The translations under genes were made by a program, and so were the position numbers. 64,000 nt of DNA from a virus (lineage: Duplodnaviria > Heunggongvirae > Uroviricota > Caudoviricetes): the IMG/VR virus record IMGVR_UViG_3300005613_000034. The stretch is one strand, 5' to 3'. This document shows, piece by piece, positions 1-56,644 of this stretch. How positions within the stretch are numbered: the stretch's first letter is position 1; every line of letters begins with the position of its first letter. Under the pieces are notes generated by a model. It saw nothing but the letters and a program-made list of their open reading frames with translations. It was not told the DNA's origin and made no database searches.

Positions 1-131
1 TTTTTATTTAAATCTTTTAGATTTGAATAATAATCTAAAACCTCTTTTTGATTAGAATGTTTAGGACAAAACCCATTAATAAACGCTAAATTTTCACAAT
101 TACTCACAACACATTTTATACAACCACTCAT
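1..131 (-). CDS. small Cys-rich protein, 5'-truncated by window (MSGCIKCVVSNCEN...)
   Basis: ATG at 131-129 preceded by junction motif; CxxC..C..H pattern; continues past window start. Confidence 0.4.
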   Translation of the reverse strand, partial: MSGCIKCVVSNCENLAFINGFCPKHSNQKEVLDYYSNLKDLNK

Positions 132-149
132 TTCTATTTCAACTCCTTT
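129..149 (-). repeat. conserved gene-junction motif copy (AAAGGAGTTGAAATAGAAATG; SD + KELK-stop + start)
   Basis: plus strand catttctatttcaactccttt. Confidence 0.8.
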
Positions 150-265
150 CCTCTCTTTCTTTCTTTCCATTTTCTTTTCATAGCTTTGCTAATATTCTTT
201 CTCCAACCATTCCAATCCTTAAAATGTCTAACCATCATCATACCCCTTAATATATTCAGTAACCT

Positions 266-290
266 CACTCATTTCTATTTCAACTCCTTT
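266..290 (-). repeat. conserved gene-junction motif copy
   Basis: cactcatttctatttcaactccttt; TAG stop of 275..613 inside motif. Confidence 0.8.
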
Positions 291-613
291 ATTAATTCCT
301 TAACTCTATCCTCATCAATAGCAACACAATCCAAAAAATCCTGATTACATGAATGCATTAACTTTCCAATTTCAGCAAAAGCTTTCATTTGGTTAAATTC
401 AGTTATTCCTGCCTGTTTAAAAAAATCAACTGCCTTCTTTCCGCCTCTCTCCCACAAAAACTCAAACAAATCATCTAACAGACTACTTTTACCTTGAATA
501 GAACCTTCCCAATAACCTTTATAATACTCAGAATCCTCATTATACTTTCTTTCTTCAGCACCCATTCTATCTCTTTCATAATCTTTCAAAAACTCTCTCA
601 TACCCATTCTCAC
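275..613 (-). CDS. hypothetical protein, cassette family (paralog of 40630..40908)
   Basis: MRMGMREFL...DRVKELIKELK versus MGMREFLEK...ERVKELIKELK; same N- and C-termini and shared flanks. Confidence 0.6.
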   Translation of the reverse strand: MRMGMREFLKDYERDRMGAEERKYNEDSEYYKGYWEGSIQGKSSLLDDLFEFLWERGGKKAVDFFKQAGITEFNQMKAFAEIGKLMHSCNQDFLDCVAIDEDRVKELIKELK

Positions 614-624
614 TTCAACTCCTT
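605..624 (-). repeat. conserved gene-junction motif copy (TGA variant)
   Basis: cattctcacttcaactcctt immediately upstream of ATG at 613. Confidence 0.75.
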
Positions 625-804
625 CTCAATTTTATAACTTAACCAATTAGACCTTATTTGAAAATATATTGCTTTTATTGGATTCGTTGTTGTTTGATAT
701 TTCAATTTATTAATTAAACCTTGTCTAAAGTAATAATTAACTTTCTGTCTTTGTTTTGAATTTAATTCATAATACCATTTTGGAATTGCTTCACAATCAT
801 TCAT
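610..804 (-). CDS. hypothetical small basic protein (64 aa) ending KELK
   Basis: ATGA overlap with downstream gene; junction motif at 3' end. Confidence 0.45.
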   Translation of the reverse strand: MNDCEAIPKWYYELNSKQRQKVNYYFRQGLINKLKYQTTTNPIKAIYFQIRSNWLSYKIEKELK

Positions 805-966
805 AACTATTACCTCTATCTTTAATTAAAAAAATTATTATGATTATTAAAATTATCAACCCAGTAAAAAACAAAACAAAAACATTCATTGGCTCAACAA
901 CACTTGAAGCAACAACAGGAACATTAACAAAAAAATTACAATCAATCATTTCAAACCACCTTCCTT

Positions 967-988
967 CATTCTCATTTCAACTCCTTTT
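967..988 (-). repeat. conserved gene-junction motif copy
   Basis: cattctcatttcaactcctttt. Confidence 0.8.
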
Positions 989-1154
989 CTATTTGTGCTT
1001 TAAATTTCCAACAACCGATATCTTTATGCTCCATTTCAAAATTAATATCAAAATTATCAGCATTTACCAAAATAGCTTCTTTAATCATTCTTTTAGCCAA
1101 CCTTTCAGAATCTCTCAAAATACAAACATTCATTTTACATTTACTCATTCTCAT
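972..1154 (-). CDS. hypothetical small protein (60 aa) ending KELK
   Basis: flanked on both sides by junction motif. Confidence 0.4.
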   Translation of the reverse strand: MRMSKCKMNVCILRDSERLAKRMIKEAILVNADNFDINFEMEHKDIGCWKFKAQIEKELK

Positions 1155-1166
1155 TTCAACTCCTTT
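1146..1166 (-). repeat. conserved gene-junction motif copy
   Basis: cattctcatttcaactccttt at start of 972..1154. Confidence 0.8.
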
Positions 1167-1279
1167 CTTTTTTTCATTGCTTTCAAAATCTTTAATCTTG
1201 TTTCCTTATTTAATGAAGCCCAAACTAAAAGAACACCAACACCAAACATCAACACTAACTCATCATCAATTTCAATTTT

Positions 1280-1300
1280 CATTCTCATTTCAACTCCTTT
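1280..1300 (-). repeat. conserved gene-junction motif copy
   Basis: cattctcatttcaactccttt; gives KELK-stop to the methyltransferase. Confidence 0.8.
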
Positions 1301-2430
1301 ATTTTTTGTTGTCCATTCAAAATACGAGCCTTAGCAATCTCAAAATACTCATGCTCTTTCTCAATACCAACAAAACCAAAACCCAAATTCCTACAAGCCA
1401 AACCAGTAGTTCCACTACCCATAAAAGGGTCTAACACAACCCCACCCTTAGGCGTAACAAGCCTAACCAAATACTCCATTAACTTAACAGGTTTTATAGT
1501 TGGATGCGAATTTTTTCTTTTAACTTTTCTATTTAAACCAATAGAAGAATTATTATTATCATTTCCACTCATACTATAATTTGAATCTTTAAAACTTTCT
1601 AATCCTTTATTTCTTTCCTTCTTACTTGCTTTCGCACAATAAAAAAAACGAGAAGGTTCTCCCAACATTTTTCCAGCTTCTTCATCTAACAAAACATTCG
1701 CAGGAAAACGCCCTTCTTCACAAGCAATTCTATCTTTACCTTGAGAAGTAAAACCACCTTTAAACAAAGTTTTACCAGCATTAAAATCATTACCCCATTT
1801 AGCAAAATCTTTATCTTTTTCAGATTTATAATCAATCCTACTTGCATCAATATTCAAACCACCAACACCCCAACGCAAAACATTCTCAACAATACTTTTC
1901 TCACTCAAAGGCTTACGAGCCAAAACAATCGGCTCATTCGCAGGTTTCAAACCACTACCCCAACCCTCCCACTCACTACAACCTTTTGTATAATTATAAT
2001 CAGGATTTGCTTTTCCACCATCCATATTTAAATTATTCCCAAGAGAACTGGCAACTCTACCACCATTCACAACCTCTCTTTCATTACCTAACTTCTTATC
2101 AATACCTTTACCAATATTATAAGATTTAGGAAAACCACTACCATACAACCACTGCAAACAATCACGAACCTCAAAACCAGCATCCTCAATAGCACAAGCC
2201 ATCCTATGATAGGTCCGAGTTCCACCAAAAGCAAGTAAGTGCCCGCCTGGTTTAACAACTCTTAAAACCTCTTTCCACATTTCCTTATTATAAGCTATTC
2301 CAGAAGCATCCCACTTCTTACCCATAAAACCAAGTTCATAAGGCGGGTCACAAACAACACTATCAATACTATTATCTTCCAACCTTTTTAACTGCTCCAA
2401 ACAATCCCCCTCAAACAAATCAAACCTCAT
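1285..2430 (-). CDS. DNA methyltransferase, beta-class N6-adenine/N4-cytosine amino-MTase
   Basis: motif IV VCDPPY near N-term, motif I LDPFMGSGTTGLAC near C-term (beta permutation); ends KELK-stop in junction motif. Confidence 0.9.
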   Translation of the reverse strand: MRFDLFEGDCLEQLKRLEDNSIDSVVCDPPYELGFMGKKWDASGIAYNKEMWKEVLRVVKPGGHLLAFGGTRTYHRMACAIEDAGFEVRDCLQWLYGSGFPKSYNIGKGIDKKLGNEREVVNGGRVASSLGNNLNMDGGKANPDYNYTKGCSEWEGWGSGLKPANEPIVLARKPLSEKSIVENVLRWGVGGLNIDASRIDYKSEKDKDFAKWGNDFNAGKTLFKGGFTSQGKDRIACEEGRFPANVLLDEEAGKMLGEPSRFFYCAKASKKERNKGLESFKDSNYSMSGNDNNNSSIGLNRKVKRKNSHPTIKPVKLMEYLVRLVTPKGGVVLDPFMGSGTTGLACRNLGFGFVGIEKEHEYFEIAKARILNGQQKIKELK

Positions 2431-2576
2431 TCTACCACCGCAACCTCATTAGTTTCCAAAACCTCATCCACACACTTTGCTAAATGCTTACCACAACACC
2501 ACAAACCATTAACCTTATACTTAGCCATACTTTTCCCACCATTCAAATTATTACAAAATTCACACTTAAAAATCAT
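2427..2576 (-). CDS. small zinc-finger protein (49 aa, CxxC..CC)
   Basis: MIFKCEFCNN...WCCGKH; stop TGA overlaps methyltransferase ATG; starts in junction motif. Confidence 0.4.
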   Translation of the reverse strand: MIFKCEFCNNLNGGKSMAKYKVNGLWCCGKHLAKCVDEVLETNEVAVVE

Positions 2577-2595
2577 TTCTCATTTCAACTCCTTT
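2574..2595 (-). repeat. conserved gene-junction motif copy (TGA-overlap variant)
   Basis: catttctcatttcaactccttt. Confidence 0.8.
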
Positions 2596-2678
2596 CTTTG
2601 ACATTTATTACAAAGTTGTTTATCAATTTCATTAGCAAATTCTAAATACCTTTCACAAAACTGACACTTCCATTTACT

Positions 2679-2700
2679 CATATTCTATTTCAACTCCTTT
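2679..2700 (-). repeat. conserved gene-junction motif copy
   Basis: catattctatttcaactccttt; gives VKELK-stop to PAPS-reductase-like gene. Confidence 0.8.
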
Positions 2701-3467
2701 ACAATCTTTGCTTTCTCAAAACAATTCAATTTAGTTTGTTTTAACAAAAATGCTTTCTTCACACTTTCACAACCATTCCAACATTCATACTTAGGCAACT
2801 TCTTAGGAATAAAACCTTTAGCAAACTCTCTTTCATATTCTTTCATACTTTTTTGAAAAATAGGTTCTCCATTTCTTTTTTCCCAAACTTTAGTTTTCTT
2901 CCATAAATCAGGATAATTCTTCCATAAAACATAAATACTCTTTTCATTCTGCTTAGGGCAAAAATAACAACCTAATCTATCAAAATTAACATATAAAGGA
3001 TTAAACAAACCCTTTTCATTTAAATAATTAATACAATCCTGTTCAGTCCATTTCCAATTAACAAGAGGATAATGTAACCTTCCTTCACTTGAACATCTTT
3101 GCTTTTCATCATAAGCAATCCCAACAAACATTTCATCATATTCTCCACATAACTTTTGTAAAGGTTTAATCTTAGATTCCCTGCTCCAATAACAAGGATA
3201 AATCCTCAAAGGAAAACCTCTCCTCATTCCTTCATTCTTTCCTCTTGTAACCTTTCCTTCAAACCATTCTTCAAAACTCTTTTCAGGGTAAACAAACTCA
3301 ATCTCACGACCCAAATAATTCTCAATCCTTTTTATATATTCATAAAGTTCAGGAAACTCAAAACCAGTATCAGCAAAAACTATTTTATCAACAGGGATGC
3401 CCAATTCAATCATTCTCAAAAGCATAGCAGTTGAATCTTTACCCCCTGAAAAAGAAACAATATTCAT
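2685..3467 (-). CDS. PAPS reductase-like PP-loop ATP pyrophosphatase family protein
   Basis: N-terminal SFSGGKDS PP-loop; 260 aa; ends VKELK-stop. Confidence 0.85.
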   Translation of the reverse strand: MNIVSFSGGKDSTAMLLRMIELGIPVDKIVFADTGFEFPELYEYIKRIENYLGREIEFVYPEKSFEEWFEGKVTRGKNEGMRRGFPLRIYPCYWSRESKIKPLQKLCGEYDEMFVGIAYDEKQRCSSEGRLHYPLVNWKWTEQDCINYLNEKGLFNPLYVNFDRLGCYFCPKQNEKSIYVLWKNYPDLWKKTKVWEKRNGEPIFQKSMKEYEREFAKGFIPKKLPKYECWNGCESVKKAFLLKQTKLNCFEKAKIVKELK

Positions 3468-3536
3468 CTTAATAACTCTCCATTCTATTTAAATCAATTA
3501 ACAAATCTTTAGCAGTATTCCTCAAATACCTTTCTC

Positions 3537-3779
3537 TCATTTCTTTTCACACTCCTCTATTCTTTTATAAATAGAATATTCTATAAACAAAGCAATAATA
3601 AATGCAAACAAACCTATAAAAAATAACCTAAACCAAAAAACCGAAAATATTATTGCTAAAAACCAACTTATTATCCATACAAAAGACAAAATGTTTGATA
3701 AAATAAGATTCAATGAATTATCATATTTTATTTCCTTTATTTTTAAATATTTATATTCTTCTTCAGACAATCTAATCAT
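3537..3779 (-). CDS. small membrane protein (2 TM)
   Basis: hydrophobic stretches WIISWFLAIIFSVFWFRLFFIGLFAFIIALFI. Confidence 0.45.
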   Translation of the reverse strand: MIRLSEEEYKYLKIKEIKYDNSLNLILSNILSFVWIISWFLAIIFSVFWFRLFFIGLFAFIIALFIEYSIYKRIEECEKK

Positions 3780-3795
3780 TCTTTCAACTCCTTTT
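3777..3795 (-). repeat. conserved gene-junction motif copy (shortened)
   Basis: cattctttcaactcctttt at start of 3537..3779. Confidence 0.7.
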
Positions 3796-4128
3796 CTTCA
3801 CAATAATAACATAAATCTACCCAACTTTTAGGAATATTCATAACACGCCCACATCTTTTACATTTATTCATTTCGAACCAACCCTTTCTTTTGTAGAAAC
3901 AATTAAATATAAGTTATTACAATAATACTTCATGGTTAATAAAACATTTAGACTTTTTGAAATAAAAGCAAGTTCTTCAAAATCTGCTTTAAGAAAAGCA
4001 AGAATGGACAGAGAAAAAACAGGTGATGTTGTTTCTGCTGTTCGTTTAATTGGCGGACAAAGACGAAATGCACGAAACAAAAAATACATGGTGTTTGGTG
4101 GAAGAAGAGAAAGATTCTGAATAAATTT

Positions 4129-4149
4129 CATTCTCATTTCAACTCCTTT
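4129..4149 (-). repeat. conserved gene-junction motif copy
   Basis: cattctcatttcaactccttt at start of 3868..4137 (MRM...). Confidence 0.75.
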
Positions 4150-5006
4150 CCTTTCTTATCTTTAGCATCAGCAATCTTCCTCTCCAAAGAATCACACAAC
4201 TGAAACAAAACAAACGCATTATCCTTAATCGCCCTAATCTCATCCTTAATCTCCATTCAAAACACCATCCACAAACTCCTGCAACTTACTATTTAATTTA
4301 GAAAAAAACTCAATCATATAAACACCCCTGTTTCAATTTCTTCTTGAATCATCTTTGAAACTTCATGCCTTTTACCTTTATACTTTTCTTCCAAAGATTC
4401 TTCAATAATTGTTTGGAAAACTTCAGAACTTAGTTTATCTAAAACTTTTTGTTCCAAAAATTTATGATTTTTTAAGTTTAAATGTTTTGTTGAATCAAAC
4501 TCAACTGAAACATTTTCAGACAATCTAACTTTCACAATCATCTTCTCCAACTCCATCTAACATACAACGAGAACAAATAAATTTTAGTTTTAATTTACCT
4601 TTATCTTCTCCACAATAATAACAACCTTTCATTTTTCCAACTCCTTCATTTGTGATTCTACTATTTTTTGTAATTTTTGACTAAAATTTTCTCCTTCTTG
4701 TTCTTGAACAAAAGTGTATTGTTTTGTGTTCAAGTAAATTGTTTCATTAGGCATTATTTATTCCCTCCTTTTGTGTTTAGTAAGGTTCTTGGAGAACCAT
4801 AACAATATCCTTTTTGATTAACAAATTCTTCCCAATTCATTCAACCACCCCTCTTAAAGTAAATTGTATTTTTATGTTTTCTTTAAGCATACCTTCAAGA
4901 ACTTTTAATTCGTGTTTTTCACATTCTTTAATGTCTGCTCTTATACTTTTTTCTTCCCTTAATAGCAAATCCAACAAATATTGCTTTTGAAACCTTGTTA
5001 AATTTT

Positions 5007-5378
5007 TCATTCAACCACCTTCTTTTTTATTAAATAAACTTTACCTGTTGGTTTGTGTTTCACACAAAAAACTCCACCATCATATCCTTCATACTTTGCT
5101 TCTCTTTTACAAGCACGACCTTGCTCAACATCTAACGCACCACAAAATTCAATACCATTAACTGACTGATAAGGTTTATCAGAATCAGCTTGAACAAACC
5201 CACATTTAGAACATTTACCTTCAACCCAATCATGTTCACAAGGGTCGCCATCAGGATTATACTCTTTATAACTTGAGTTAGTTCCTATTTGCAATCTATC
5301 CTTACAGATAGGACAAGTTGTGGTAAAAGTTGGTTTTTCATCAAAATTTAACTTACATTTGTCACAACTAAAACTCAT
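5007..5378 (-). CDS. Cys-rich putative zinc-binding protein
   Basis: CDKCK..CPICK..CEH..CSKCG..C..C patterns. Confidence 0.5.
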   Translation of the reverse strand: MSFSCDKCKLNFDEKPTFTTTCPICKDRLQIGTNSSYKEYNPDGDPCEHDWVEGKCSKCGFVQADSDKPYQSVNGIEFCGALDVEQGRACKREAKYEGYDGGVFCVKHKPTGKVYLIKKKVVE

Positions 5379-5490
5379 TCAACCACCCACAATTCAATCT
5401 TTTCAGTATCAAACTTTGATTTACTTAAAATAACATTTCCAAAAGTTACCAAGTAATCAAGTTCGCTTTTAGTTATACGCAACTGATGAT

Positions 5491-5694
5491 TCATTCAACC
5501 ACCTCTCCTTTTTCATCAAACTTTTCAGCTCTATCTTTCTTAACCTGTTCAGCAAAAGCCAAAAACTCATCAACAGGCATTAAGAAATACTGAAACCTTG
5601 TTGTCTTTAAATAATTTCTATCTGCTTGTAGTTCAACTATTCCTTTTCTACACAATCTTATTTTTCTATTACTAAATTCTTCAACCATTTTCAT
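5491..5694 (-). CDS. hypothetical protein (67 aa)
   Basis: ORF with palindromic operator-like site and TATA-like box upstream. Confidence 0.4.
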   Translation of the reverse strand: MKMVEEFSNRKIRLCRKGIVELQADRNYLKTTRFQYFLMPVDEFLAFAEQVKKDRAEKFDEKGEVVE

Positions 5695-5722
5695 CTCATC
5701 TCCTTTGTAACTCTTTGGTTAC

Positions 5723-5740
5723 TACATTAACTAATGTAGT
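5723..5740. promoter_or_regulatory. perfect palindrome CTACATTAACTAATGTAG, candidate operator, next to TTTATAAA TATA-like box
   Basis: 8-bp inverted arms; ~30-50 nt upstream of ATG at 5694. Confidence 0.4.
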
Positions 5741-5799
5741 AATGTATTTATAAAGGTATATGTTAAAATGCAACATAAACAACAAAAAAAAAAGAAAAA

Positions 5800-5819
5800 T
5801 AAGGGTTTTCAAACCCTTA
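5800..5819 (-). terminator. hairpin TAAGGGTTT-tc-AAACCCTTA followed by T-tract on minus strand
   Basis: 9-bp perfect stem overlapping stop of 5817..6128; A-run 5781-5799 on plus strand. Confidence 0.55.
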
Positions 5820-6128
5820 CTCAACAGAAGTAGTAGTATATTTAGTATCTTCCTTAGTAGTTCCTTGACGAGTAATCCTAATGTAAGGCTCTGGCTTCTC
5901 CATACATTTCTTAATACCCCTAACAATAGAAATACCAACTTCAAACTCTTTTTGTTCATCTTTCTTATTCAAAAAAGATAAATTATACCGGTCTTTCATA
6001 ACCCCAGCAATCTCTTTAACTTCTTTAGATATTTCAAGAGATTCTTTCTTAATATAAGTATCTCCTTCTGGGATTTTTTCAAATTTTGCTTCTATTTCTT
6101 CATTTTCAAAAAATTCGTTTGCTTTCAT
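5817..6128 (-). CDS. hypothetical protein (103 aa)
   Basis: ORF with terminator hairpin at 3' end. Confidence 0.45.
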   Translation of the reverse strand: MKANEFFENEEIEAKFEKIPEGDTYIKKESLEISKEVKEIAGVMKDRYNLSFLNKKDEQKEFEVGISIVRGIKKCMEKPEPYIRITRQGTTKEDTKYTTTSVE

Positions 6129-6442
6129 ATTGATAAACCTCCTTGCTCTAAATAATGAGCTATTTATCGTTTAAATTATAGTAAATAGTGTTTTTAAGTG
6201 TTTCTAAGGTTCTGTGCCGGTGTAAAATTGTAAAAAAGGAAAAAGATTGTTTCTTTCATCAATACTTTATTCCATTTGGTTTGGATTTCAAACCATATTA
6301 AGAGTAAATGGTTTGAATAACTAAGAATTATGTATCAATATGACCAACTAACCCATATATATTCCCTCCTAAGATGATTACAGAAATAATATATTAAAAT
6401 AGAAATTTACTAAGGTTAATTAGTCTTTTTGGTTTATCCAAA

Positions 6443-6465
6443 GTCTTACTCCTTAAAAGTAAGAC
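6443..6465 (-). terminator. 8-bp stem hairpin GTCTTACT..AGTAAGAC overlapping stop of helicase gene
   Basis: seen in sequence. Confidence 0.35.
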
Positions 6466-7756
6466 CATGAATAAAATACTGACGAGAATCCCCAACCTTC
6501 TCTCTTTTCTTCCAAACATTATTAGGATAAAGCTTATACAAATGTCTGAAAAAATGAACTTCAGTTTGAGAAATAATATTCTTCAACTTACAATACTCTC
6601 TATACTTCTCATAAAGAATAGTTGTTTCAATCCTAAAGTCTGGGTCTAACTCTAACTCATTATAAATGAATGAAGTAGCAGAATTAGAAAAGTGCATATA
6701 CTTAGACCTTTTTTCCTCAATACATTCATTTCTAATAAAATTATTGTTATCCAAAGCTGTTTTGTAAGCATCAAGACAACTTAAAAAGAAATTAAACATA
6801 TTCTCCTTAGTAATTAGCTTCTCCAACAACTCCCTATCTGGATTTGCTTCAAAAGAGTTTGGAAAGTTAATTATTATTATTCTCCTATGAAAACCATCTG
6901 AATCATCTGGAGTTTCTGGAACTTCATTACAACTTGCTATAATCTTAGCATAGTTTTTGAATTGAAATCCTTTCTTGAACTTTTCTTCAGCGTATATGGT
7001 ATCTCCACCAGTAAGCTCTTTTAATATTCCAACATCACTTAACGCTTTTTTTGGTAAATCTCCAAATATGTTTGCGTTCTTGCAATATAGTTGGGAAGCT
7101 GCGAATCTGTTTTGTGTTAAACTTTGTAGAGATAGTCCTGATATGTTTTTTTCTCCAAGCATTTCTCTTATAATGTTTAGATATACGCTTTTTCCATTTC
7201 CTCCTGCTCCATATAGTAGGAATAGGTTTTGGAAAGGCATTTTTCTATGAAATGAGTATCCGACTATTTCTTTTAGAAGTAAATGGTCTGTTTGGTTTTC
7301 TGTTATTTGTTCTATGAATTTGTCTATTGGGTTTTCTGTTATTGTATCTTCTTCTAACCACTCTACATTGTGCTTTGATAAAAACACGAATTGTGGGTCA
7401 TAAGGCATTGTTTTTCCTGTTGAAAAGTCATATATAACATTTTTTAGTGGTATAAGGTTAGCGTTTTCTCCTACTACTTCTCTTTTCTTATAAGTTTGTC
7501 TGCGAATGCTACCTAAAACCTCACTAATTAAATGATTTGATGTTCTTGTTGTTGCAACAATCTGAACAATCTCTTTCAACTCATCCTCACAAGGCACATA
7601 AACGCCTTCATCCCAATCAAAAGAATAAATCTCATCAGTATCAGAAAAAGTAATAATATGCTCTCTTTCAAGAATCCTTTTAGAAACTTCATTAGGATTT
7701 AACTTCTCAAAATACTTTAGTTCCTCTTGGTCTAAATTATACTTATGCTTGTTCAT
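6446..7756 (-). CDS. SF3 helicase, D5/P4-primase C-terminal-like NTPase (replication initiator)
   Basis: Walker A LYGAGGNGKS; SF3-like downstream motifs GDLP...DDSDGFHRRIIIINF. Confidence 0.8.
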   Translation of the reverse strand: MNKHKYNLDQEELKYFEKLNPNEVSKRILEREHIITFSDTDEIYSFDWDEGVYVPCEDELKEIVQIVATTRTSNHLISEVLGSIRRQTYKKREVVGENANLIPLKNVIYDFSTGKTMPYDPQFVFLSKHNVEWLEEDTITENPIDKFIEQITENQTDHLLLKEIVGYSFHRKMPFQNLFLLYGAGGNGKSVYLNIIREMLGEKNISGLSLQSLTQNRFAASQLYCKNANIFGDLPKKALSDVGILKELTGGDTIYAEEKFKKGFQFKNYAKIIASCNEVPETPDDSDGFHRRIIIINFPNSFEANPDRELLEKLITKENMFNFFLSCLDAYKTALDNNNFIRNECIEEKRSKYMHFSNSATSFIYNELELDPDFRIETTILYEKYREYCKLKNIISQTEVHFFRHLYKLYPNNVWKKREKVGDSRQYFIHGLTFKE

Positions 7757-7930
7757 TGTTCCACCTTCTCAATGAAACAAGCATCATAAGGAAAGTTTTT
7801 AGGCTGTCCAAACTTGTCTAAAAAAAGTATTCTATTATTCCTTTCTTGAAAAGTGTTTGTAGTGAATTTTCTATGTTCGCCATCAGGCATTCTTACTTGT
7901 ATTATATATTTCGTCAAAATCTCATCTCCT

Positions 7931-7951
7931 TAGCAACTTTTTAAGTTGCTA
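7931..7951 (-). terminator. hairpin TAGCAACTT-ttt-AAGTTGCTA between structural and replication blocks
   Basis: 9-bp perfect stem downstream (minus) of 7996..9129. Confidence 0.45.
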
Positions 7952-7995
7952 TAATTAGTAGTGCTTTAGTTTATTTAAATGTTTAGTTTGAAATT

Positions 7996-9129
7996 CTAAC
8001 TACATTCAAAATTTCCAGCGTTAGTAACTCCACAATTCCAAGTTGTCCCATCTGGAGAGTTCATCAAAACATTACCATCAGTTTTAACAGTTGTTGCTCC
8101 AAGAGAAGTAATAACATTAAAATCAGCATTTAATTCTAAAGCATTATCAGTATCAATAGTTAAATCAGTTCCATCATAATAAATTGAAGCGTCATCTCCT
8201 GCCCCGAATACTATCTTAGAATTATCATTGATTAATTTTAATTCATTGTTACTTGTAAGTTTCATTACCGCATCATTAGTTGTTACACTTGATGAATTTG
8301 TAGTTTTGTTAATTGCCCATATGAAATCTCCTACTCCCCCACTACTTGTTCTTTCGTAAAACATACCACCTTTATAATATCCACCTGCAGTTGTTGCACT
8401 CCATCTTATCCCGGCTGGTGAATTAGGAGTAGTTGTAGTTCTTTTAATACCTATACCTGCATTATCTTCATCTACATTAACTTGTAAAACATTTCTACTT
8501 TCTATAGATGATGAAGCCCAAGTCCCAATCATTGCAAAATTATATACACTCAATAATCCAGTATCTCTATTAAGCTCCATCTTAGTATCCATACCAGTTC
8601 CACCATTAGTATTAAATTGTAAATTATTTGTTGTTGCTCCAGTAAATCTAATTTCAGCTCCCAAATCTGCTCTTTCTAATAATTGCAACGCCGCATCTGT
8701 ATTAACTGCAGTTGCTCTTAATCTTGCAACTGGTGCTGCTGATAACAAATCTAAGGCATAAGAGGGTGTTGTCCCTATTCCTAAATTTCCACCATCTACT
8801 ACCAAGTCACCAGTTCCTACTTCTTGAGGATTAACAATCATATTAGTTCCATCATAATAAATTGAAGCATTATCAGTATCGCCAAAGAAATGTTTAAGAT
8901 TGTCTCCAATACTTAAATCACCAGTTAAAGGGTCATTAATAGTGTCTAAACGCAAATAATTATTATCTAAAACATTTTGATTAATATCAATAAAAACAAA
9001 ATTATCTCCACCGGGAATCCCCGAACCAGTGCAACCGAAAGTCAATATCAAGGCGGCTAGCAACAAAAGTATTATAAAAGGTTTGTTCATACTATAAAAT
9101 AGATTTTTGTTAATTATAAAGCTTTCCAT
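7996..9129 (-). CDS. secreted/lipoprotein-like structural protein with internal repeats
   Basis: signal peptide MNKPFIILLLLAALILTFGC-TGS; repeated ASIYYDGT(N/D)..segments; likely real start at internal Met MNKPF. Confidence 0.6.
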   Translation of the reverse strand: MESFIINKNLFYSMNKPFIILLLLAALILTFGCTGSGIPGGDNFVFIDINQNVLDNNYLRLDTINDPLTGDLSIGDNLKHFFGDTDNASIYYDGTNMIVNPQEVGTGDLVVDGGNLGIGTTPSYALDLLSAAPVARLRATAVNTDAALQLLERADLGAEIRFTGATTNNLQFNTNGGTGMDTKMELNRDTGLLSVYNFAMIGTWASSSIESRNVLQVNVDEDNAGIGIKRTTTTPNSPAGIRWSATTAGGYYKGGMFYERTSSGGVGDFIWAINKTTNSSSVTTNDAVMKLTSNNELKLINDNSKIVFGAGDDASIYYDGTDLTIDTDNALELNADFNVITSLGATTVKTDGNVLMNSPDGTTWNCGVTNAGNFECS

Positions 9130-9180
9130 TATATTTTCACACCTTGTACAGGTTTATTTTTCTTTTGTAAAAAGAAAAAG

Positions 9181-9474
9181 TTATGGGCCTATATAACGTT
9201 GCCCGGTTTGGAAGTCTGAGATTACACTCATGAAGAACAGAAGAACCATTAGAATTCCGCTCATTCCAACTAAAAGATTAATTGTTCCTGAATTACTTAA
9301 CGCAGACATATTTCCTGTTGTAATTGTATGAACAATATCATTTACAACCGGTAAAAACGCGGCTAACATAATCAATCCCATTACCAATGCAAAAAAACTA
9401 TACATTGATCCTTGGCCTTTGTTATCTTTCAAAAATGTTTTCATAAATACACCATTTCTTAACATAATATACAA
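9181..9474 (-). CDS. small hydrophobic 2-TM protein, paralog of 9516..9746 (candidate virion/capsid membrane protein)
   Basis: shared LPVxN(E/D)I...T..G motif and TM topology. Confidence 0.5.
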   Translation of the reverse strand: MYIMLRNGVFMKTFLKDNKGQGSMYSFFALVMGLIMLAAFLPVVNDIVHTITTGNMSALSNSGTINLLVGMSGILMVLLFFMSVISDFQTGQRYIGP

Positions 9475-9515
9475 TTTTCTTATTTATAAACCTTTCTGTT
9501 TTTGTTTAAACTTTT

Positions 9516-9746
9516 TTAGTAATCATACGCCCCCGGAGGTAAATAATTATCATCGGCTTGACTCATCTGAACATACATTACAATAGCCGCGGCAATCAAA
9601 ACTAAAATCATTGATCCTAACATTAGTCCTACCGTTCCCCCCATCGTATTAGTAATTCCTGGAATTAATTCATTCGCAACAGGTAAAAGTACTACTAAAG
9701 AAATCAATCCAACTACAAACATTACTGTTGCTGCATAATAAGACAT
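9516..9746 (-). CDS. small hydrophobic 2-TM protein, paralog of 9181..9474
   Basis: MSYYAATVMFVVGLISLVVLLPVANELIPGITNTMGG... Confidence 0.5.
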   Translation of the reverse strand: MSYYAATVMFVVGLISLVVLLPVANELIPGITNTMGGTVGLMLGSMILVLIAAAIVMYVQMSQADDNYLPPGAYDY

Positions 9747-15076: not shown

Positions 15077-16438
15077 TCAATCATTCAAAAAAACTTTTTT
15101 TCTAGTAGTAGTATTAACCATTCTTGAAGCTCTAATAGGAGCACCTTGTTCACCGGTAACATAAGATTTTGTAGCGCTTTCTCTAATTTTAGCAACATCT
15201 TTTTTAGTTTCGTCAACAAGTGATTTAAAACGAGACGGAGCTTCCTGCTCACCATACAAAGCCCCTCTAAGATTTTCTAAACTTTTATTAACCTGCTGAG
15301 CTTCAACATTTCTTTTATATTCACTTAAACTTGTTTTACCACGTGAAATAGTACTAGGCCCACCAAGAGAAGCTTTTCTTTTAAACTTTTTCTTCAAAGC
15401 TCTATCCAACGATTCAGATCTTTTATCAAACCTACTTTGTTCAGAAGCTAAAATACCACCATAAATTTTTTCAATCAATTCTGCGCGCTTAGCTTCATAT
15501 TCAGCTTCATCAGTATAAGTTCCATAAACGGGTTCATACCCAATAGTATATCTTTCTTCATAAGAAGTAGGAACATCATATTCTCCAATAACCGCTTTAC
15601 CTGTTTCAGGATCATAATAAAGAATAGGAGGAGCATCTTTAGTACTTTGAGATTCAGTAATTGATACTTCCGGAGTATCTTTTAATACACCAGCTAAAAA
15701 TGGAGAAGTTCCACTAATATCAAAATAATTTTTATATTTATTAGGATCGGGGGCATAAACTGTAGTCCCAGATGAAGACCCACTAAATCCTGTAAATCCA
15801 CCAGACCCAGAAGGTAAATATTTAGACGCATTTTGAATTACTCCGCCTTTAACATCTCCCGCAGCATAAGCTTTAGAATAAGCTTCGGCTTTAGCATAAT
15901 TAGCTGTACCAGGTTTATAAGGATTAGATTTTAAAGGTAATGCCCCAGAAGATTGAGGTTTAGGAGCACTATAACTTGAACTTCCTCCACCACTAGATGA
16001 CCCACCACCAGACCCATAAGTAGCACCACGCGCAATATTAGAAGCTCTATAACTTGCATAAGATTGCCCTCTTAATAATCTTTGTCTATCTTTGTCAAAC
16101 GGATAACAATCAATGTTATTAGGGACTCCATCCCCATCAAAATCAAAATCTTTATACAAACCACGTTCACCAGGGAAATCCGGCTTATTCATATATTTTT
16201 TAGAAAGATTTAAAGCTTTATTCGCATATTTCTTAGCTTTTTTAGCAGAATACCCGCGTCTCATCAAATCTTTTTGAAACCTTTTAACTTGCCCGGGAGT
16301 CAATGATTGAGTTTTTGCTGGCATTTCATGAGCAAAATTATTTATCATATCAGCATCAGACATTAAATTTCCAATAGGTAAAGGATCAACTCTAACGCGT
16401 CTAACCTTTCCTTGAGAAAGTTTATCTAACCAATTCAT
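15077..16438 (-). CDS. hypothetical structural-module protein with calcium-binding-like DxDxDG motif and Gly/Ser-rich linker
   Basis: DFDGDGVPNNIDCYPFD; GSGGGSSSGGGSSS. Confidence 0.5.
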   Translation of the reverse strand: MNWLDKLSQGKVRRVRVDPLPIGNLMSDADMINNFAHEMPAKTQSLTPGQVKRFQKDLMRRGYSAKKAKKYANKALNLSKKYMNKPDFPGERGLYKDFDFDGDGVPNNIDCYPFDKDRQRLLRGQSYASYRASNIARGATYGSGGGSSSGGGSSSYSAPKPQSSGALPLKSNPYKPGTANYAKAEAYSKAYAAGDVKGGVIQNASKYLPSGSGGFTGFSGSSSGTTVYAPDPNKYKNYFDISGTSPFLAGVLKDTPEVSITESQSTKDAPPILYYDPETGKAVIGEYDVPTSYEERYTIGYEPVYGTYTDEAEYEAKRAELIEKIYGGILASEQSRFDKRSESLDRALKKKFKRKASLGGPSTISRGKTSLSEYKRNVEAQQVNKSLENLRGALYGEQEAPSRFKSLVDETKKDVAKIRESATKSYVTGEQGAPIRASRMVNTTTRKKVFLND

Positions 16439-18686: not shown

Positions 18687-19412
18687 TTAATGTACGAATA
18701 CATTTAAAAAGGTTTCGGTAGTCTTGCTTCCGATACCATCAACCTTAAAAGACCCGTCATTCAGTGCTTTACGAAGAGAAGAAAAATCCGGGTAAATTTT
18801 TTCAATTGATTTAGCTTTCTCTTCACTTATATTAGGTAAAGACATTAAAACATTTCGGTAAGTATTATCTTTATGTTTAGCATGTGTTATTGCCATACCT
18901 CTTATCTCTTTTCCATCTGTAAGCTTTTCGGCAACCATTAACAAAAAATCAATAAATTCATCGTCATTTTTAACAAAAATCATTTCTACATTAGTATATC
19001 GCGCGGCAACACTAGACATAATTCCAAGAAGCTGATTTCGAGAAAAAGTTTTTACATTTTGTACTATTCCCATAGCTTTTAGCTTCGCCCGTTCTTTGTA
19101 AATAGCATCGATGTCACCAACGACAATTAAAAAATTTTTAGAAAAACTATTATTCATCTTATAAAGCTCTGAAAATATTCTTCCATTATAAATTGATCCA
19201 ACTAAATCACTAAAAATCTTTCGCTCAACACAAAATTTATGTCCTGTTTCTTTATTTTCAACAATATAATCTCCAATTTTAAGTTGTTTCATTTCATATT
19301 TAACTCCAGCGGCATCAAATTTTGGAATAATATTTTTATCAATACTATTTTTATGTTCTTCTCTATGATCAATTGTTATATTAAAATTATCTTTATTTAC
19401 CATATTTATCAC
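18687..19412 (-). CDS. XPF/Mus81/Hef-family ERCC4 nuclease with C-terminal HhH
   Basis: IGDYIV...CVERK signature (GDxnERKxxD); C-terminal DGIGSKTTETF HhH. Confidence 0.75.
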   Translation of the reverse strand: MINMVNKDNFNITIDHREEHKNSIDKNIIPKFDAAGVKYEMKQLKIGDYIVENKETGHKFCVERKIFSDLVGSIYNGRIFSELYKMNNSFSKNFLIVVGDIDAIYKERAKLKAMGIVQNVKTFSRNQLLGIMSSVAARYTNVEMIFVKNDDEFIDFLLMVAEKLTDGKEIRGMAITHAKHKDNTYRNVLMSLPNISEEKAKSIEKIYPDFSSLRKALNDGSFKVDGIGSKTTETFLNVFVH

Positions 19413-35714: not shown

Positions 35715-35937
35715 TAATAAAATTTCCTATAACCGCAATAATAAAAATTGGAATTAAAACAATCCCAAGTAAAATTAAAAAAGGTAATGCAACTATCCAT
35801 GAAATTATTTCTAATATTTTACATTTTGTTGGTGAAAGACATGGAATATCGTGAGGATTATAACCTAAATCCATTCTTTCTATATTTTCTTGGCAGTTAG
35901 CACAAAAATGTGATTCATACCATTTAAAAATTCCCAT
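35701..35937 (-). CDS. small membrane protein
   Basis: C-terminal TM IISWIVALPFLILLGIVLIPIFIIAVI. Confidence 0.4.
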   Translation of the reverse strand: MGIFKWYESHFCANCQENIERMDLGYNPHDIPCLSPTKCKILEIISWIVALPFLILLGIVLIPIFIIAVIGNFINDKE

Positions 35938-36665
35938 TATTTATCTCTCCCCGCTTCTTTACATTTAACTTTATGTCTACAATATTTACAGTTTCCTCTT
36001 TCATCCATTAAAGGATAATCTACAGGGGGAACCGTTTCTGTTTCTAATGCTGTATCAAGTTGAATTGCAAAATTTACCATTTCATCAAAAGTTTCTTGAG
36101 AAAATTTTACTGTATGTTGTACAACTTCTAAATTTCTTTTATCAATGTAAACAACCATTCCATGGTCTGCTAATGTACATGCTAAATAATAATTAATTTG
36201 ATCAATATGCTCTTTTTTCGGCCCGTTTATTTTATTATAATAAGAGTTTGCAGTAGTTTTATAATCAACAATAATTGGTTTTTCATCCCCCTTCAAATAA
36301 AAAATTGTATCAAGTCTTCCAGAAATTAGAATTTGTTTTCCATTTGTTTTATCTAATGGTAACAAATAATGAAATGCTTTTTCATTTTCTATATGATCAA
36401 GTTTATCTCCAATAACATCCTTTACATTATCTTGTACAAGTTCATGTAAAACATTTCCAAGTAAAAAAACTCGCATAGTTCTATCGTCAAATTCTTCAGG
36501 ATAAAGTCTTGAGAAATAAGAATTACGGACACATCCACTTAATTCTGTAGGAGAATATTTATGTTCCATTTTTTTATGGAAACTACCATCTCCTTTTCTT
36601 GCAATTTTATTTAAAATTTCTTGGAAATCTAAAGTTTTTTCGAATTCAGTTAAATTATCACTCAT
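35937..36665 (-). CDS. Cas4/RecB-family PD-(D/E)xK nuclease with Cys cluster
   Basis: IVDYKTT D/ExK motif; one N-terminal Cys plus C-terminal CKYCRHKVKC. Confidence 0.65.
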   Translation of the reverse strand: MSDNLTEFEKTLDFQEILNKIARKGDGSFHKKMEHKYSPTELSGCVRNSYFSRLYPEEFDDRTMRVFLLGNVLHELVQDNVKDVIGDKLDHIENEKAFHYLLPLDKTNGKQILISGRLDTIFYLKGDEKPIIVDYKTTANSYYNKINGPKKEHIDQINYYLACTLADHGMVVYIDKRNLEVVQHTVKFSQETFDEMVNFAIQLDTALETETVPPVDYPLMDERGNCKYCRHKVKCKEAGRDK

Positions 36666-40459: not shown

Positions 40460-40627
40460 AATATTACCTCTTCAAAATTACAATCAAAATCATCTAAATT
40501 TCCACCTTTATATTTATTCTTACAAACAGGGCAAACAATCTTAATATCTTTATCACCATATTTAATAATATCTTTACTCAAAATAACATTACACTTTTCA
40601 CACTTCAACATATCCAATTCAATACTC

Positions 40628-40646
40628 ATCTATTTCAACTCCTTTA
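40628..40646 (-). repeat. conserved gene-junction motif copy (distant, 40 kb from array)
   Basis: catctatttcaactccttt followed by attaattccttaactc, as at 266-300. Confidence 0.8.
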
Positions 40647-40908
40647 TTAATTCCTTAACTCTTTCCTCATCAATCTCAACACAACGCAAAAAATCCCTTT
40701 TTCTTTTATCTCCATCTCCAATTCCAATAAAATTATTCTTTATTGCTTTATCCCAACAATCATTTAAATAAATAGAATAAGCCTTTGCAAATCCAATAGC
40801 ATTATCTTCCCACAAAAAATCAAACAAATCATCAACAAGAACAGCATCTTTACAATAACCTATTTGCCCACCAAAACTTTTCTTTTCCAAAAACTCTCTC
40901 ATACCCAT
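40630..40908 (-). CDS. hypothetical protein, cassette family (paralog of 275..613)
   Basis: shared MGMREFL start and RVKELIKELK end plus flanking junction motifs. Confidence 0.6.
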   Translation of the reverse strand: MGMREFLEKKSFGGQIGYCKDAVLVDDLFDFLWEDNAIGFAKAYSIYLNDCWDKAIKNNFIGIGDGDKRKRDFLRCVEIDEERVKELIKELK

Positions 40909-40925
40909 TCTATTTCAACTCCTTT
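40906..40925 (-). repeat. conserved gene-junction motif copy (distant)
   Basis: cattctatttcaactccttt at start of 40630..40908. Confidence 0.8.
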
Positions 40926-41121
40926 ATAATAATTTTTTTCTAATATATCCAACGCGGACATAATCTTCATAACTAATGTCTTTCATAAAATCTAAATCTT
41001 TAATTGTTCCCCCACCCCGCCTAACAATATCATGTAAATCCGCAACATTAATATATTGATTATCCGCTAAATGTTTTAAACTATGTTTTACAAATTTTTT
41101 ATTCTTCATATCCAACACCAA
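40924..41121 (-). CDS. hypothetical protein (65 aa)
   Basis: ORF upstream of junction motif. Confidence 0.35.
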   Translation of the reverse strand: MVLDMKNKKFVKHSLKHLADNQYINVADLHDIVRRGGGTIKDLDFMKDISYEDYVRVGYIRKKLL

Positions 41122-41282
41122 AAATAATTACATTTCCATTATCAGAATCTTGTTCAACATATGTTTCTTTATATATGTTATTCCATTCTTCATCTGATGC
41201 AACTTTCACTTCTTCGTTTTCATCTACTGATTTTAATAGTTTTATTAATTCTTTTACTTTCATTTATTTCACCTCGCTTTAG

Positions 41283-41344
41283 TGGATAGAGAAGGATTCG
41301 AACCCTCTAACGCGTAATGTTTAGCACCTCTAAACTATCTATCC
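41283..41344 (-). ncRNA. tRNA-like minihelix / degenerate tRNA (acceptor stem + T-arm intact; D and anticodon arms replaced by one short hairpin)
   Basis: 5' GGATAGA / 3' TCTATCC-A acceptor; T-arm GAGGG-TTCGAAT-CCTTC; 62 nt total, too short for a canonical tRNA; overlaps ligase stop. Confidence 0.45.
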
Positions 41345-55591: not shown

Positions 55592-56644
55592 ATGACATCA
55601 AAAAAATCTGATATTGATAGAACAAATCTTTCTGACATACCTTCATATAGCAAAATGTTTGATAAAATAAAATCAATAGACATCAACGAATACAAAGGAT
55701 ATACCCGGAAAAGAATGATTTGGGTAAAGGCAGCCGCTACTATTCTACTATTAACGGGGTGTAGGGTTACTGAATTACTTTTACTTAGAAAAAAAGATAT
55801 TCGATTCTTTGGATTTAATAATAATGAATTGGTTGGGCAGTTTGATATTTCCCAGATTGCATCAATGCAATTTAATTTATATACCGAGAAGAACCGTAAA
55901 AACAAGTATAGAGTTGTTCCTGTTGTAAAAAACAGTTTTTTTATTGACATGATATCTATTGTATATGATTTTTATAAAACCTTTGATTATGATGAGACAT
56001 ATTTATTCCCACTCACAAGGCAGGGGGTATGGAATGGTATAAAGGCGGTTTTTGGAAATAATATGTTTCCACACTTCCTTAGACACATTTCAGTAACTAA
56101 TGATACTAAAGCTGGTATTTCTCCATCTATTATTAAATCTAAATATGGGTGGACGGATCTTAGACCACATTCAATTTATTCACACTTGAATTGGTTTGAT
56201 ATTCAAACCGCACAAACTTCTGCATGGGGGGAGGCCGCACCCGCTCCAAAAGCCATTATTATTGAACGCCCTAGTTGGATGAAAGGGTCTTATGCCCAAA
56301 TGACCAATTATAATAAAAAAGTTGAGCATGCATTACATAATAATCAAGATTTTGTTCCGCGAGATTTTGATACTATTGAAGAAGCACTTAAAAATAAAGT
56401 TGAAATGGGGGATTCAATAGATGGTAAAATTGTTGTTATTTTGTCTAGAGAGACCGATTTTGATAAAGCTAAAAAGAGGTTTGACGGGAATAAATATATA
56501 TTGATTTATGCTAAAAGTAAGGAAGCTATTAAAAAAATGGAAAGTGTTACTAATGCGTCCGCTCAAAAACGAAGCCCGAATCCAACCCCCCAACCTCCAA
56601 CAAAAACAGTTCCTAAAAATACTCCTCAATTAGCTATGGTGTAG
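55592..56644 (+). CDS. tyrosine recombinase / integrase
   Basis: box I-like LLLTGCRVTELLLLRKKDI (Arg); HFLRHISVT (H-x-x-R); HSIYSHL (Tyr); ~120-aa Pro-rich C-terminal extension. Confidence 0.75.
   Translation: MTSKKSDIDRTNLSDIPSYSKMFDKIKSIDINEYKGYTRKRMIWVKAAATILLLTGCRVTELLLLRKKDIRFFGFNNNELVGQFDISQIASMQFNLYTEKNRKNKYRVVPVVKNSFFIDMISIVYDFYKTFDYDETYLFPLTRQGVWNGIKAVFGNNMFPHFLRHISVTNDTKAGISPSIIKSKYGWTDLRPHSIYSHLNWFDIQTAQTSAWGEAAPAPKAIIIERPSWMKGSYAQMTNYNKKVEHALHNNQDFVPRDFDTIEEALKNKVEMGDSIDGKIVVILSRETDFDKAKKRFDGNKYILIYAKSKEAIKKMESVTNASAQKRSPNPTPQPPTKTVPKNTPQLAMV

Follow-up and report, generated by a model that had tools for sequence, protein, structure and literature searches.

A 21-nucleotide translational junction marks, and probably drives, the shuffling of gene cassettes in an uncultivated virus-like element

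We analyzed a 64,000-nt stretch of viral DNA (IMG/VR record IMGVR_UViG_3300005613_000034, Caudoviricetes; hereafter the window). It represents the part of a low-GC (30%), uncultivated virus-like element devoted to replication and nucleotide metabolism and carries an operon-like array of small genes at its left end. Unrelated small genes of this array are separated by a recurring junction of ~21 bases that supplies the stop codon of one gene and the ribosome-binding site and start codon of the next at fixed spacing; we call it the KELK junction after the four residues with which most genes upstream of it end. Units bounded by such junctions have been gained, lost, replaced, and moved between near-identical genomes. 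We conclude that the junction marks, and probably drives, the shuffling of gene cassettes, and we hold with moderate confidence that it is a translational junction that doubles as a short homology patch for cassette exchange.

A first-pass annotation, made from the letters of the window alone, had likened the repeat to a recombination-competent cassette junction and had suggested asking whether gene content and order between copies differ among related genomes. This comparison was clearly positive in four contigs (L032, L091, L089, and L094; L numbers denote contigs of relatives, mostly short metagenome assemblies), which supports the main point of the proposal, while a causal role of the linker is something that we infer. 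The strain variant L032 matches the window at 100% identity from position 4200 to the junction GCGGTGGT[A/T]GAATGA at 2427-2439 and, directly after the ATGA, codes for a different, shorter methyltransferase. L091 has closely related flanks (left, 98.1% identical to window 8000-5674; right, 93.5% identical to the integrase side of contig L045), but its array measures 3.6 kb with ~17 genes, compared to ~7.6 kb with ~31 genes in the window lineage, and the two have only seven orthologous cassettes (90-100% amino-acid identity) and one distant paralogue in common. The first block of L091 contains three genes unrelated to the window's four, all of which end in ..VVE with the same junction (a second type, described below) at the same 5' position, and its distal block is joined by the KELK junction. 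In the window, copies of GGAGTTGGA(A/G)AA(G)ATGA flank, as direct repeats, a 35-amino-acid (aa) CxxC cassette that L091 lacks; the window-L091 alignments overlap by 19 nt.

Rearrangements were equally apparent within the array. In L089, one member of a small protein family (FLWERGGK...QDFLDCVAIDE; copy A, window 275-607, 97.5% identity) is joined directly to a cassette beginning MIQMCNKCG (95.7%), whereas in the window and L060, the same two cassettes lie ~968 nt apart with four to five small open reading frames (ORFs) between them. The 24-nt junction is exactly what the two alignments have in common, and the indel runs linker to linker. Across L094, L089, and the window, the same cassettes (91-100% identity) occur in three different orders. 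The second family member, copy B, adjoins the ligase gene in the window and in L090 (99.8% identical), while L089 has its counterpart (85.5% identical) within the array. The same junction surrounds other cargo, in the same mosaic pattern, in L017 and in the pair L037/L043, and multi-gene (three-gene) units without internal standard junctions are inherited together. The IMG/VR relatives of the array's PAPS-reductase-like protein (L002-L008) are different phages without the junction and are informative only for an absent C-terminal tail. When the ends of homology blocks were compared over all pairs, 27 of 46 fell within 25 nt of a junction core (expected 6.8; maximum 15 in 2000 randomizations), the 46 ends being counted from both directions and corresponding to ~23 independent ones. 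The crossover points themselves vary: some lie inside the junction, others ~15 nt within the following gene, at a ATGGATGATTTTGAAG common to two genes, and others again ~30 nt upstream.

To account for these observations, we propose that the junction would be a standardized gene-to-gene link in a long operon of small accessory genes, whose many identical, same-orientation DNA copies could act as short homology patches. Recombination between patches would delete, insert, replace, or move the intervening units, and every recombinant would automatically acquire a correct stop, ribosome site, and start. That the repeated 21-mer is itself the substrate of crossover (by homologous or microhomology recombination), beyond marking gene boundaries, we infer for the following reasons: Indels begin and end at junctions, which are the only sequence shared. 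The VVE block of L091 keeps its junction type while its genes change. Multi-gene units that lack internal standard junctions stay together. The variable crossover points argue against a site-specific enzyme. A nine-codon mini-ORF at 946-975, in which a KELK linker is fused directly to another linker, looks like an empty cassette or a deletion scar; it includes a 27-nt stretch identical to the start of an L060 gene. Finally, nucleases of recombination type (ERCC4 and PD-(D/E)XK) are encoded nearby.

Several points weigh against a homology-driven exchange. Because junctions coincide with gene boundaries, the breakpoint statistics cannot tell homology-driven exchange from random exchange followed by selection for intact genes. 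Some breakpoints, such as that at window 797-804 compared to L094, fall at boundaries that have no standard junction. We found no single-strand annealing protein or RecA-like recombinase in the 64 kb. The exchange is read from comparison of contigs rather than from directly observed deletion or circle products; assembly chimeras at a repeat of 21-34 nt are improbable at k=141, though less surely so for the older JGI contigs, and L060 is connected to L045 by a 100-nt overlap which is a mobile cassette in its own right. The pairing energies given below refer to the conserved 16S rRNA tail rather than to a tail of the host itself.

The abundance and placement of the junction were far from random. 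AAAGGAGTTGAAAT followed by GAGAATG or AGAAATG occurs in 10 minus-strand copies in window 1-4200, and further copies comprise two weaker ones at 4538-4647, two at 40.6/40.9 kb, and at least six to the left of the window. Searching the window for the 14-mer AAAGGAGTTGAAAT with up to 2 mismatches returned 19 matches, 19/19 on the minus strand, compared to 3.0 ± 1.7 in shuffled sequence (0/100 shuffles reached 19), and the exact 11-mer AAGGAGTTGAA occurs 12 times (10 in 1-4200 and two at 40644/40924), never on the plus strand. The first-pass count of at least 12 copies in 4.6 kb is thus reached only when the degenerate copies (4629-4647 and 4538-4554) are included, and the weaker variant that it had placed at ~4640 is the one at 4629-4647. 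Overlooked at that stage were a second junction family, GGTGGTTGAATGA (..VVE-stop; 4837-5503, with a variant at 2427-2439), which ends the first four array genes and one later gene, and a third type, GAAGGTGGTTTGAAATGA, at 946-963; this 18-mer linker also occurs in L037, and a member of the FLWERGGK family (P0128) ends in ..KEGGLK. All junction copies sit at gene boundaries on the coding strand, and a repeat search showed that the likeness between copies fades within ~10 nt on either side. Beyond the window, the exact 21-mer had 0 matches in IMG/VR and a degenerate 20-mer had 1 chance match; a degenerate 21-mer searched against metagenomes and genomes gave 73 matches, mostly single chance ones, of which L017, L032, L037, L043, L045, L048, and L060 were informative. 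The motif was not found in the literature searched.

Dissection of the copies indicates which parts of the junction would serve translation. There are two subtypes, AAAGGAGTTGAAAT-GAGA-ATG and AAAGGAGTTGAAAT-AGAA-ATG, and in both, the stop (TGA or TAG) lies at offset 7-9 and an ATG at offset 12-14 after AAGGAG, with 11-12 nt separating AAGGAG from the ATG. Because the stop and this conserved ATG keep the same offsets in both subtypes, the second ATG is probably the true start, and the MRM peptide would mostly be a by-product that is not translated. The first-pass reading of AAGGAG as a Shine-Dalgarno (SD) sequence therefore stands, but its ATGAGAATG (MRM) start probably does not: Only about half of the copies have ATGAGAATG, the others having ATAGAAATG, and in the TGA subtype, the "first ATG" is merely AAA+TGA. 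In the copy at 2574-2595, the first ATG is out of frame (MRNDF-stop) and only the second can start the next gene; in the copy at 605-625, GTG replaces the first ATG and the second is kept. Orthologues begin at the corresponding position, as the MRMKCEYCNN gene of L045 begins MKCEYCNN in L091 (behind a TAG-type junction) and the homologue of MRMKIEIDD.. in L093 (P0150) begins MKIEIDD... At the RNA level, AAAGGAGUUGA / AAAGGAGTTGA is an extended SD site that pairs at 10/11 bases with the conserved 3' tail of 16S rRNA. The predicted duplex energy is –10.8 kcal/mol for the KELK junction, –9.6 to –13.2 kcal/mol for its sister junctions, and –10.9 kcal/mol for AAGGAAGTGAAAAAATGA, the junction of the distant contig L086, and the SD is unpaired in 8/12 local folds. 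These features suggest a role for the junction in driving translation of the gene that follows. Translational coupling, which the first-pass annotation had offered as the alternative to a cassette junction, appears to hold as well, with the SD inside the upstream ORF and stop and start within a few bases of each other, and it is compatible with cassette exchange. We rejected the junction as a promoter: TTGAAA resembles a –35 element, but a –10-like hexamer at the right spacing is present in only 3/10 copies.

Given so complete a translation signal, the junction might be only a lineage-typical, strongly selected ribosome site with stop and start, the cassettes being exchanged by illegitimate recombination and selection keeping those breaks that fall at gene boundaries. 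We regard this as unlikely. It fits the finding that L086 has its own junction in ~10 copies with the same predicted pairing energy, that the FLWERGGK family ends in many junction-like tails (KELE, KEKVKE, KEGVKE, and KGEL), and that some breakpoints lie at non-standard boundaries. However, selection for pairing would prefer G over the invariant, mismatched T in AAGGAG-T-TGA, and it would not fix the spacer and the stop-to-start bases in more than 20 copies. Other genes of the window use varied SD sites and spacers, so the 21-mer is not just the generic ribosome site of the lineage. Retention of one junction type per block despite gene replacement, and an L089 indel that runs exactly from junction to junction, also argue for the homology patch.

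The same invariant bases bear on a regulatory explanation, in which a factor acting on the whole gene set (a RegA-like translational repressor, or a RegB-like nuclease cutting at GGAG) would use the junction as its operator or cleavage site, shuffling being a side effect. Invariant positions do extend outside the rRNA-pairing part (TTGAAAT, and GA/AA before the ATG), and the same question has been raised for the start-associated sequences of Cluster K phages (PMC3203893). Yet no candidate factor was found, the small array proteins being without Pfam or PHROG match, and an Rfam scan of 1-6500 gave no match. Since this explanation also leaves the block-wise junction types and the junction-to-junction indels unaccounted for, we consider it quite improbable.

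A dedicated recombinase was the remaining alternative. The first-pass annotation had described the array as integron-like with no integrase nearby; however, a tyrosine recombinase is encoded at 55592-56644 of the window, and in L045 and L091, another immediately follows the 3' end of the array. In a site-specific system, the latter would cut and join at the junction. Its position suits such a role, as the 233-aa Phage_integrase-family protein occupies the same place, convergent to the array, in both contigs; the cassettes share one orientation and appear to be promoterless; and one cassette between two junction copies has moved 40 kb. Against this, the junction is asymmetric, with no dyad symmetry and, in the repeat search, no inverted repeats at or near it, for which reason we also rejected it as an attC-like hairpin. 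The crossover points are variable. The recombinase reaches 24.9 bits with the XerA/integron-integrase model, whose cutoff is 220, and all the small tyrosine recombinases that we found fall well short of the cutoffs for XerA, XerC/D, and integron integrases. Lying at the array end far from the promoter, the protein is more simply the element's own integrase. We therefore judge a site-specific system highly improbable, and we give very little credence to the corresponding idea that the coding-embedded 21-nt junction is the attachment site of the 3'-end tyrosine recombinase, which would define a new integron-like type whose sites serve simultaneously as stop codon, ribosome-binding site, and start codon, in a possibly archaeal virus-like element.

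In addition to joining genes, the junction shapes their products. The first-pass annotation stated that each copy encodes K-E-L-K and the stop of the upstream gene; nine ORFs do end in this way, but two have variant ends (KELKE and KELEK), and two copies are untranslated because they lie just after a TAA stop (window 40906-40925, and one in L060). The K-E-L-K tail arises because the SD site lies in frame inside the upstream gene. The further first-pass claim that the C-terminus is set by the nucleotide element rather than by ancestry is well supported: The Pfam methylase domain ends at residue 367/381, before the tail. The L002 homologue of the PAPS-reductase-like protein, at 70% identity, stops nine residues earlier and lacks the ..KAKIVKELK tail. 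The two copies after TAA remain untranslated. In L093, a decayed copy is read through (..RKRKELKDKSEYKENNKR), with RKRKELK kept internally. The upstream genes are also unrelated, as claimed: Pfam confirmed the methylase and PAPS_reduct assignments, and all-against-all BLASTP of the array proteins revealed no real paralogy, only weak similarity among CxxC mini-proteins. An origin of the array by tandem duplication of one gene was rejected on the basis of this lack of paralogy and of two clearly different enzyme folds. The other array products, from small ORFs, had no Pfam or PHROG match, and an exact look-up of the methyltransferase returned no record. A hidden Markov model search with both FLWERGGK family copies recovered 25 clusters among 1.84 billion representatives, and the C-termini of this family track different junction types (KELK, KELKKK, KELE, KEKVKE, KEGGLK, and KEGVKE); junction-linked arrays are therefore widespread in this uncultivated clade. 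Copy B, 40 kb away, has an array-like composition (skew 0.79). Coordinates are collected in Table 1.

Table 1. Positions of junctions, cassettes, and other features (window coordinates unless a contig is named).
Feature	Position	Strand	Remark
Operon-like array, ~27 small genes	1..5694	minus	ORF chain with 4-nt overlaps or 2-nt gaps
Terminator-like hairpin and T run	5797..5822	minus	just upstream of array
TTTATAAATA box, candidate promoter	5745..5754	minus	~50 nt upstream of first array gene
ORFs ending ...KELK-stop (9)	134-241, 275-607, 610-804, 972-1154, 1151-1288, 1285-2430, 2580-2681, 2685-3467, 4134-4256	minus	
Variant-ending ORFs (2)	3776-3871 (KELKE); 4629-4754 (KELEK)	minus	
DNA methyltransferase cassette, N6_N4_Mtase	1285..2430	minus	Pfam; ..KIKELK tail; other allele in L032
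PAPS-reductase-like cassette, PAPS_reduct	2685..3467	minus	Pfam; ..KAKIVKELK tail
FLWERGGK...QDFLDCVAIDE family, copy A	275..607	minus	97.5% identical in L089, with other neighbors
FLWERGGK...QDFLDCVAIDE family, copy B	40630..40908	minus	40 kb from array; KELK linkers on both sides
35-aa CxxC cassette	4525..4632	minus	in window, missing from L091
Nine-codon mini-ORF, MRMKEGGLK-stop	946..975	minus	KELK linker fused directly to GAAGGTGGTTTGAAATGA (946-963)
KELK linker, TAG type	127..149	minus	
KELK linker, TAG type, AAAGGAGTTGAAATAGAAATGAG	268..290	minus	
KELK linker variant, GAAGGAGTTGAAGTGAGAATG	605..625	minus	
KELK linker, TGA type	967..987	minus	
KELK linker, TGA type	1146..1166	minus	
KELK linker, TGA type	1280..1300	minus	end of methyltransferase gene
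KELK linker, AAAGGAGTTGAAATGAGAAATG	2574..2595	minus	
KELK linker, TAG type	2679..2700	minus	end of PAPS-reductase-like gene
KELK linker variant, AAAGGAGTTGAAAGAATGA	3776..3794	minus	..KELKE-stop
KELK linker, TGA type, AAAGGAGTTGAAATGAGAATG	4129..4149	minus	
Weak variant, GGAGTTGGAGAAGATGA	4538..4554	minus	right direct repeat of 35-aa cassette
Weak variant, GAAGGAGTTGGAAAAATGA	4629..4647	minus	left direct repeat of 35-aa cassette
KELK linker, TAG type	40627..40645	minus	ATG directly after
KELK linker, TAG type	40906..40925	minus	untranslated; TAA of upstream gene just before
VVE linker variant, GGTGGTAGAATGA	2427..2439	minus	exact L032 switch point
VVE linker	4837..4849	minus	left edge of block common to L091
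VVE linker	5007..5019	minus	
VVE linker	5375..5387	minus	
VVE linker, GGTGGTTGAATGA	5491..5503	minus	
ERCC4 nuclease	18687-19412		best match archaeal Hef/Xpf
PD-(D/E)XK nuclease	35937-36665		
Small tyrosine recombinase	55592-56644	plus	Pfam Phage_integrase, 32 bits (all four recombinase rows)
Small tyrosine recombinase	L045 12859-13560		
Small tyrosine recombinase	L091 6716-7417		
Small tyrosine recombinase	L093 1951-2481		

The array belongs to a lineage that is remote from isolated viruses. Products encoded in the window include a D5-type primase-helicase, a family B polymerase, NrdD, an ATP-dependent ligase, and an HNH endonuclease; among isolated viruses, amino-acid identity did not exceed 30% for the primase or 25% for the polymerase, and no relatives of the primase were found in IMG/VR. 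Based on L060 and L045, the array extends ~1.9 kb to the left of window position 1. L060 corresponds to window 1-1685 plus 820 nt with further junction copies, and L045, which shares 100 nt with the end of L060, adds two KELK genes, a terminator, and the convergent 233-aa tyrosine recombinase; the 3' end of the L091 array is built in the same way, including the recombinase. All cassettes are in one orientation, with no consistent promoter within the array and no terminator inside it, the hairpin just upstream being the sole terminator-like minus-strand site in 1-8000. The TTTATAAATA box is a candidate array promoter. TTTATA(A/T)ATA-like boxes also occur ~30 nt upstream of the ATG of the block-first genes at 16438, 36665, and 55592, which have no SD, and ~50 nt upstream of that of the first array gene (5694), which has one; internal genes have SD sites. 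Together with the archaeal-like ERCC4 nuclease, the family B polymerase, and the ATP-dependent ligase, these TATA-like boxes hint at an archaeal host.

Composition also sets the array apart. Its coding strand is poor in C (3-8%), with a GC skew of 0.4-0.85 compared to 0.1-0.3 for other genes. The bias spans window 1-5700 and 40460-41262 (minus) as well as L032, L037, L017, and L091, and it is common to both methyltransferase alleles (window and L032). Avoidance of mRNA structure was rejected as its explanation (mean minimum free energy per 120 nt of –16.4 in the array versus –14.3 to –17.1 elsewhere), and an alternative genetic code is not needed, as long ORFs are intact under table 11. The sole array segment with reversed skew is window 3868-4137, where a 62-aa basic ORF lies on the plus strand (3932-4120) with a TTAAATATA box ~30 nt upstream; opposite it, an 89-codon minus-strand ORF remains open from the 4129-4149 junction through to the following ATGA (3871). 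Neither ORF had a family or PDB match.

We made several further observations on the wider element and its relatives. Window 7964-8961 and L045 1-997 form a 99.9% identical 1-kb stretch (the C-terminal part of a 377-aa and a 488-aa protein), and apart from this stretch, the remainder of L045 is unrelated to the window. L045, window 1-7963, and the L060 extension would close a circle of ~23.4 kb, and the L091 contig is 21,978 nt long; the primase-array-integrase module may either form an element of its own of ~22 kb or be shared with a larger genome. A tRNA-like 3' half (..AGAGGGTTCGAATCCTTCTCTATCCA..; ~41285-41330, minus strand) immediately downstream of the ligase gene forms the upstream edge of the small island that has array-like composition and contains both distal junction copies. 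ARAGORN calls no tRNA at ~41285-41330, and the half may be the remnant of an old attachment site. In the distant contig L086 (GCA_004196315.1, SDBT01002215.1), whose primase is 48% identical, 4265-9563 holds ~25 small genes with 4-nt overlaps, among them a multi-copy family starting MTWAG/MNWAG; its AAGGAAGTGAAAAAATGA junction encodes ..KEVKK-stop. In L002, an unrelated phage with the closest PAPS-reductase homologue, the 792-aa and 849-aa ORFs downstream of that gene (1960-7006) look intein-interrupted and, read by eye, are probably the terminase and portal.

The "linker" idea of modular phage evolution, in which exchange occurs at short conserved sequences between genes, is said to go back to Susskind and Botstein in 1978, and to our knowledge it has few clean natural examples. 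In lambdoid phages, short conserved boundary sequences at gene borders have been proposed as crossover points. Here, a single 21-base junction recurs more than 20 times, and near-identical cassettes are found in at least four arrangements in public metagenomes. Such a junction would guarantee that every recombinant is translatable, which makes the linker hypothesis directly testable and the junction a natural counterpart of a standardized assembly overhang. Two cautions follow: Common C-terminal peptides may stem from nucleotide elements rather than from ancestry, and arrays of this kind break short-read assemblies at the repeats.

Ordinary coupled stop-start junctions are similar in that the downstream SD lies in the 3' end of the upstream gene and stop and start are within a few bases, but they differ from gene to gene, whereas here one sequence recurs more than 20 times with 14-21 bases identical. 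In integrons, each cassette carries at its 3' end an attC site of imperfect inverted repeats (57-141 bp), and the tyrosine recombinase IntI is encoded beside attI and the cassette promoter, divergently transcribed. The array resembles an integron in its tandem, unrelated, and mostly small genes, in their single orientation, and in content that varies among close relatives; as read from the DNA, its genes would also be promoterless and expressed from one end. The defining features, however, fail: The linker is a ~21-nt asymmetric element within coding sequence rather than an imperfect palindrome of attC type, no integrase of the IntI type adjoins the promoter (the nearer recombinase is at the 3' end and convergent), and the crossover points are not fixed.

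The first-pass statement that no described system with this exact architecture was known needs correction, since analogues exist in the start-associated sequences (SAS) of mycobacteriophages (PMC3203893) and the promoter-early stem-loop (PeSL) cassettes of T4-type phages (PMC2839356), each of which differs from the junction in some respects. SAS have a 13-bp consensus, GGGATAGGAGCCC, in Cluster K phages (PMC3203893). Like the junction, they are asymmetric short repeats with an AGGAG core, in one orientation, a few bases before the ATG of unrelated non-structural genes; the upstream stop is sometimes within the repeat, and pairing with 16S rRNA accounts for the conservation only in part. They differ in sequence (only the AGGAG core is common), have no fixed stop position or imposed C-terminal peptide, and are scattered over half a genome rather than set in a tandem array, and cassette shuffling at SAS sites is not reported (PMC3203893). 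PeSL cassettes carry an intergenic sigma-70-type promoter and a terminator hairpin, and their mini-circles have been shown by inverse PCR (PMC2839356; PMC4122927). Both systems repeat short conserved expression signals between ORFan genes in hyperplastic regions, and in both, copies of the motif delimit the indels and replacements that distinguish close relatives. In both, the proposed route is homologous recombination between repeats without a dedicated recombinase, and moved genes would bring working signals with them. The junction differs in being a translation signal of ~21 nt that overlaps the upstream coding end and fixes its last four residues, and the array is one operon without hairpins or the motif of promoter (–35/–10) plus stem-loop. 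By analogy, we conclude that the junction system would work most like PeSL cassettes, while falling outside the PeSL definition.

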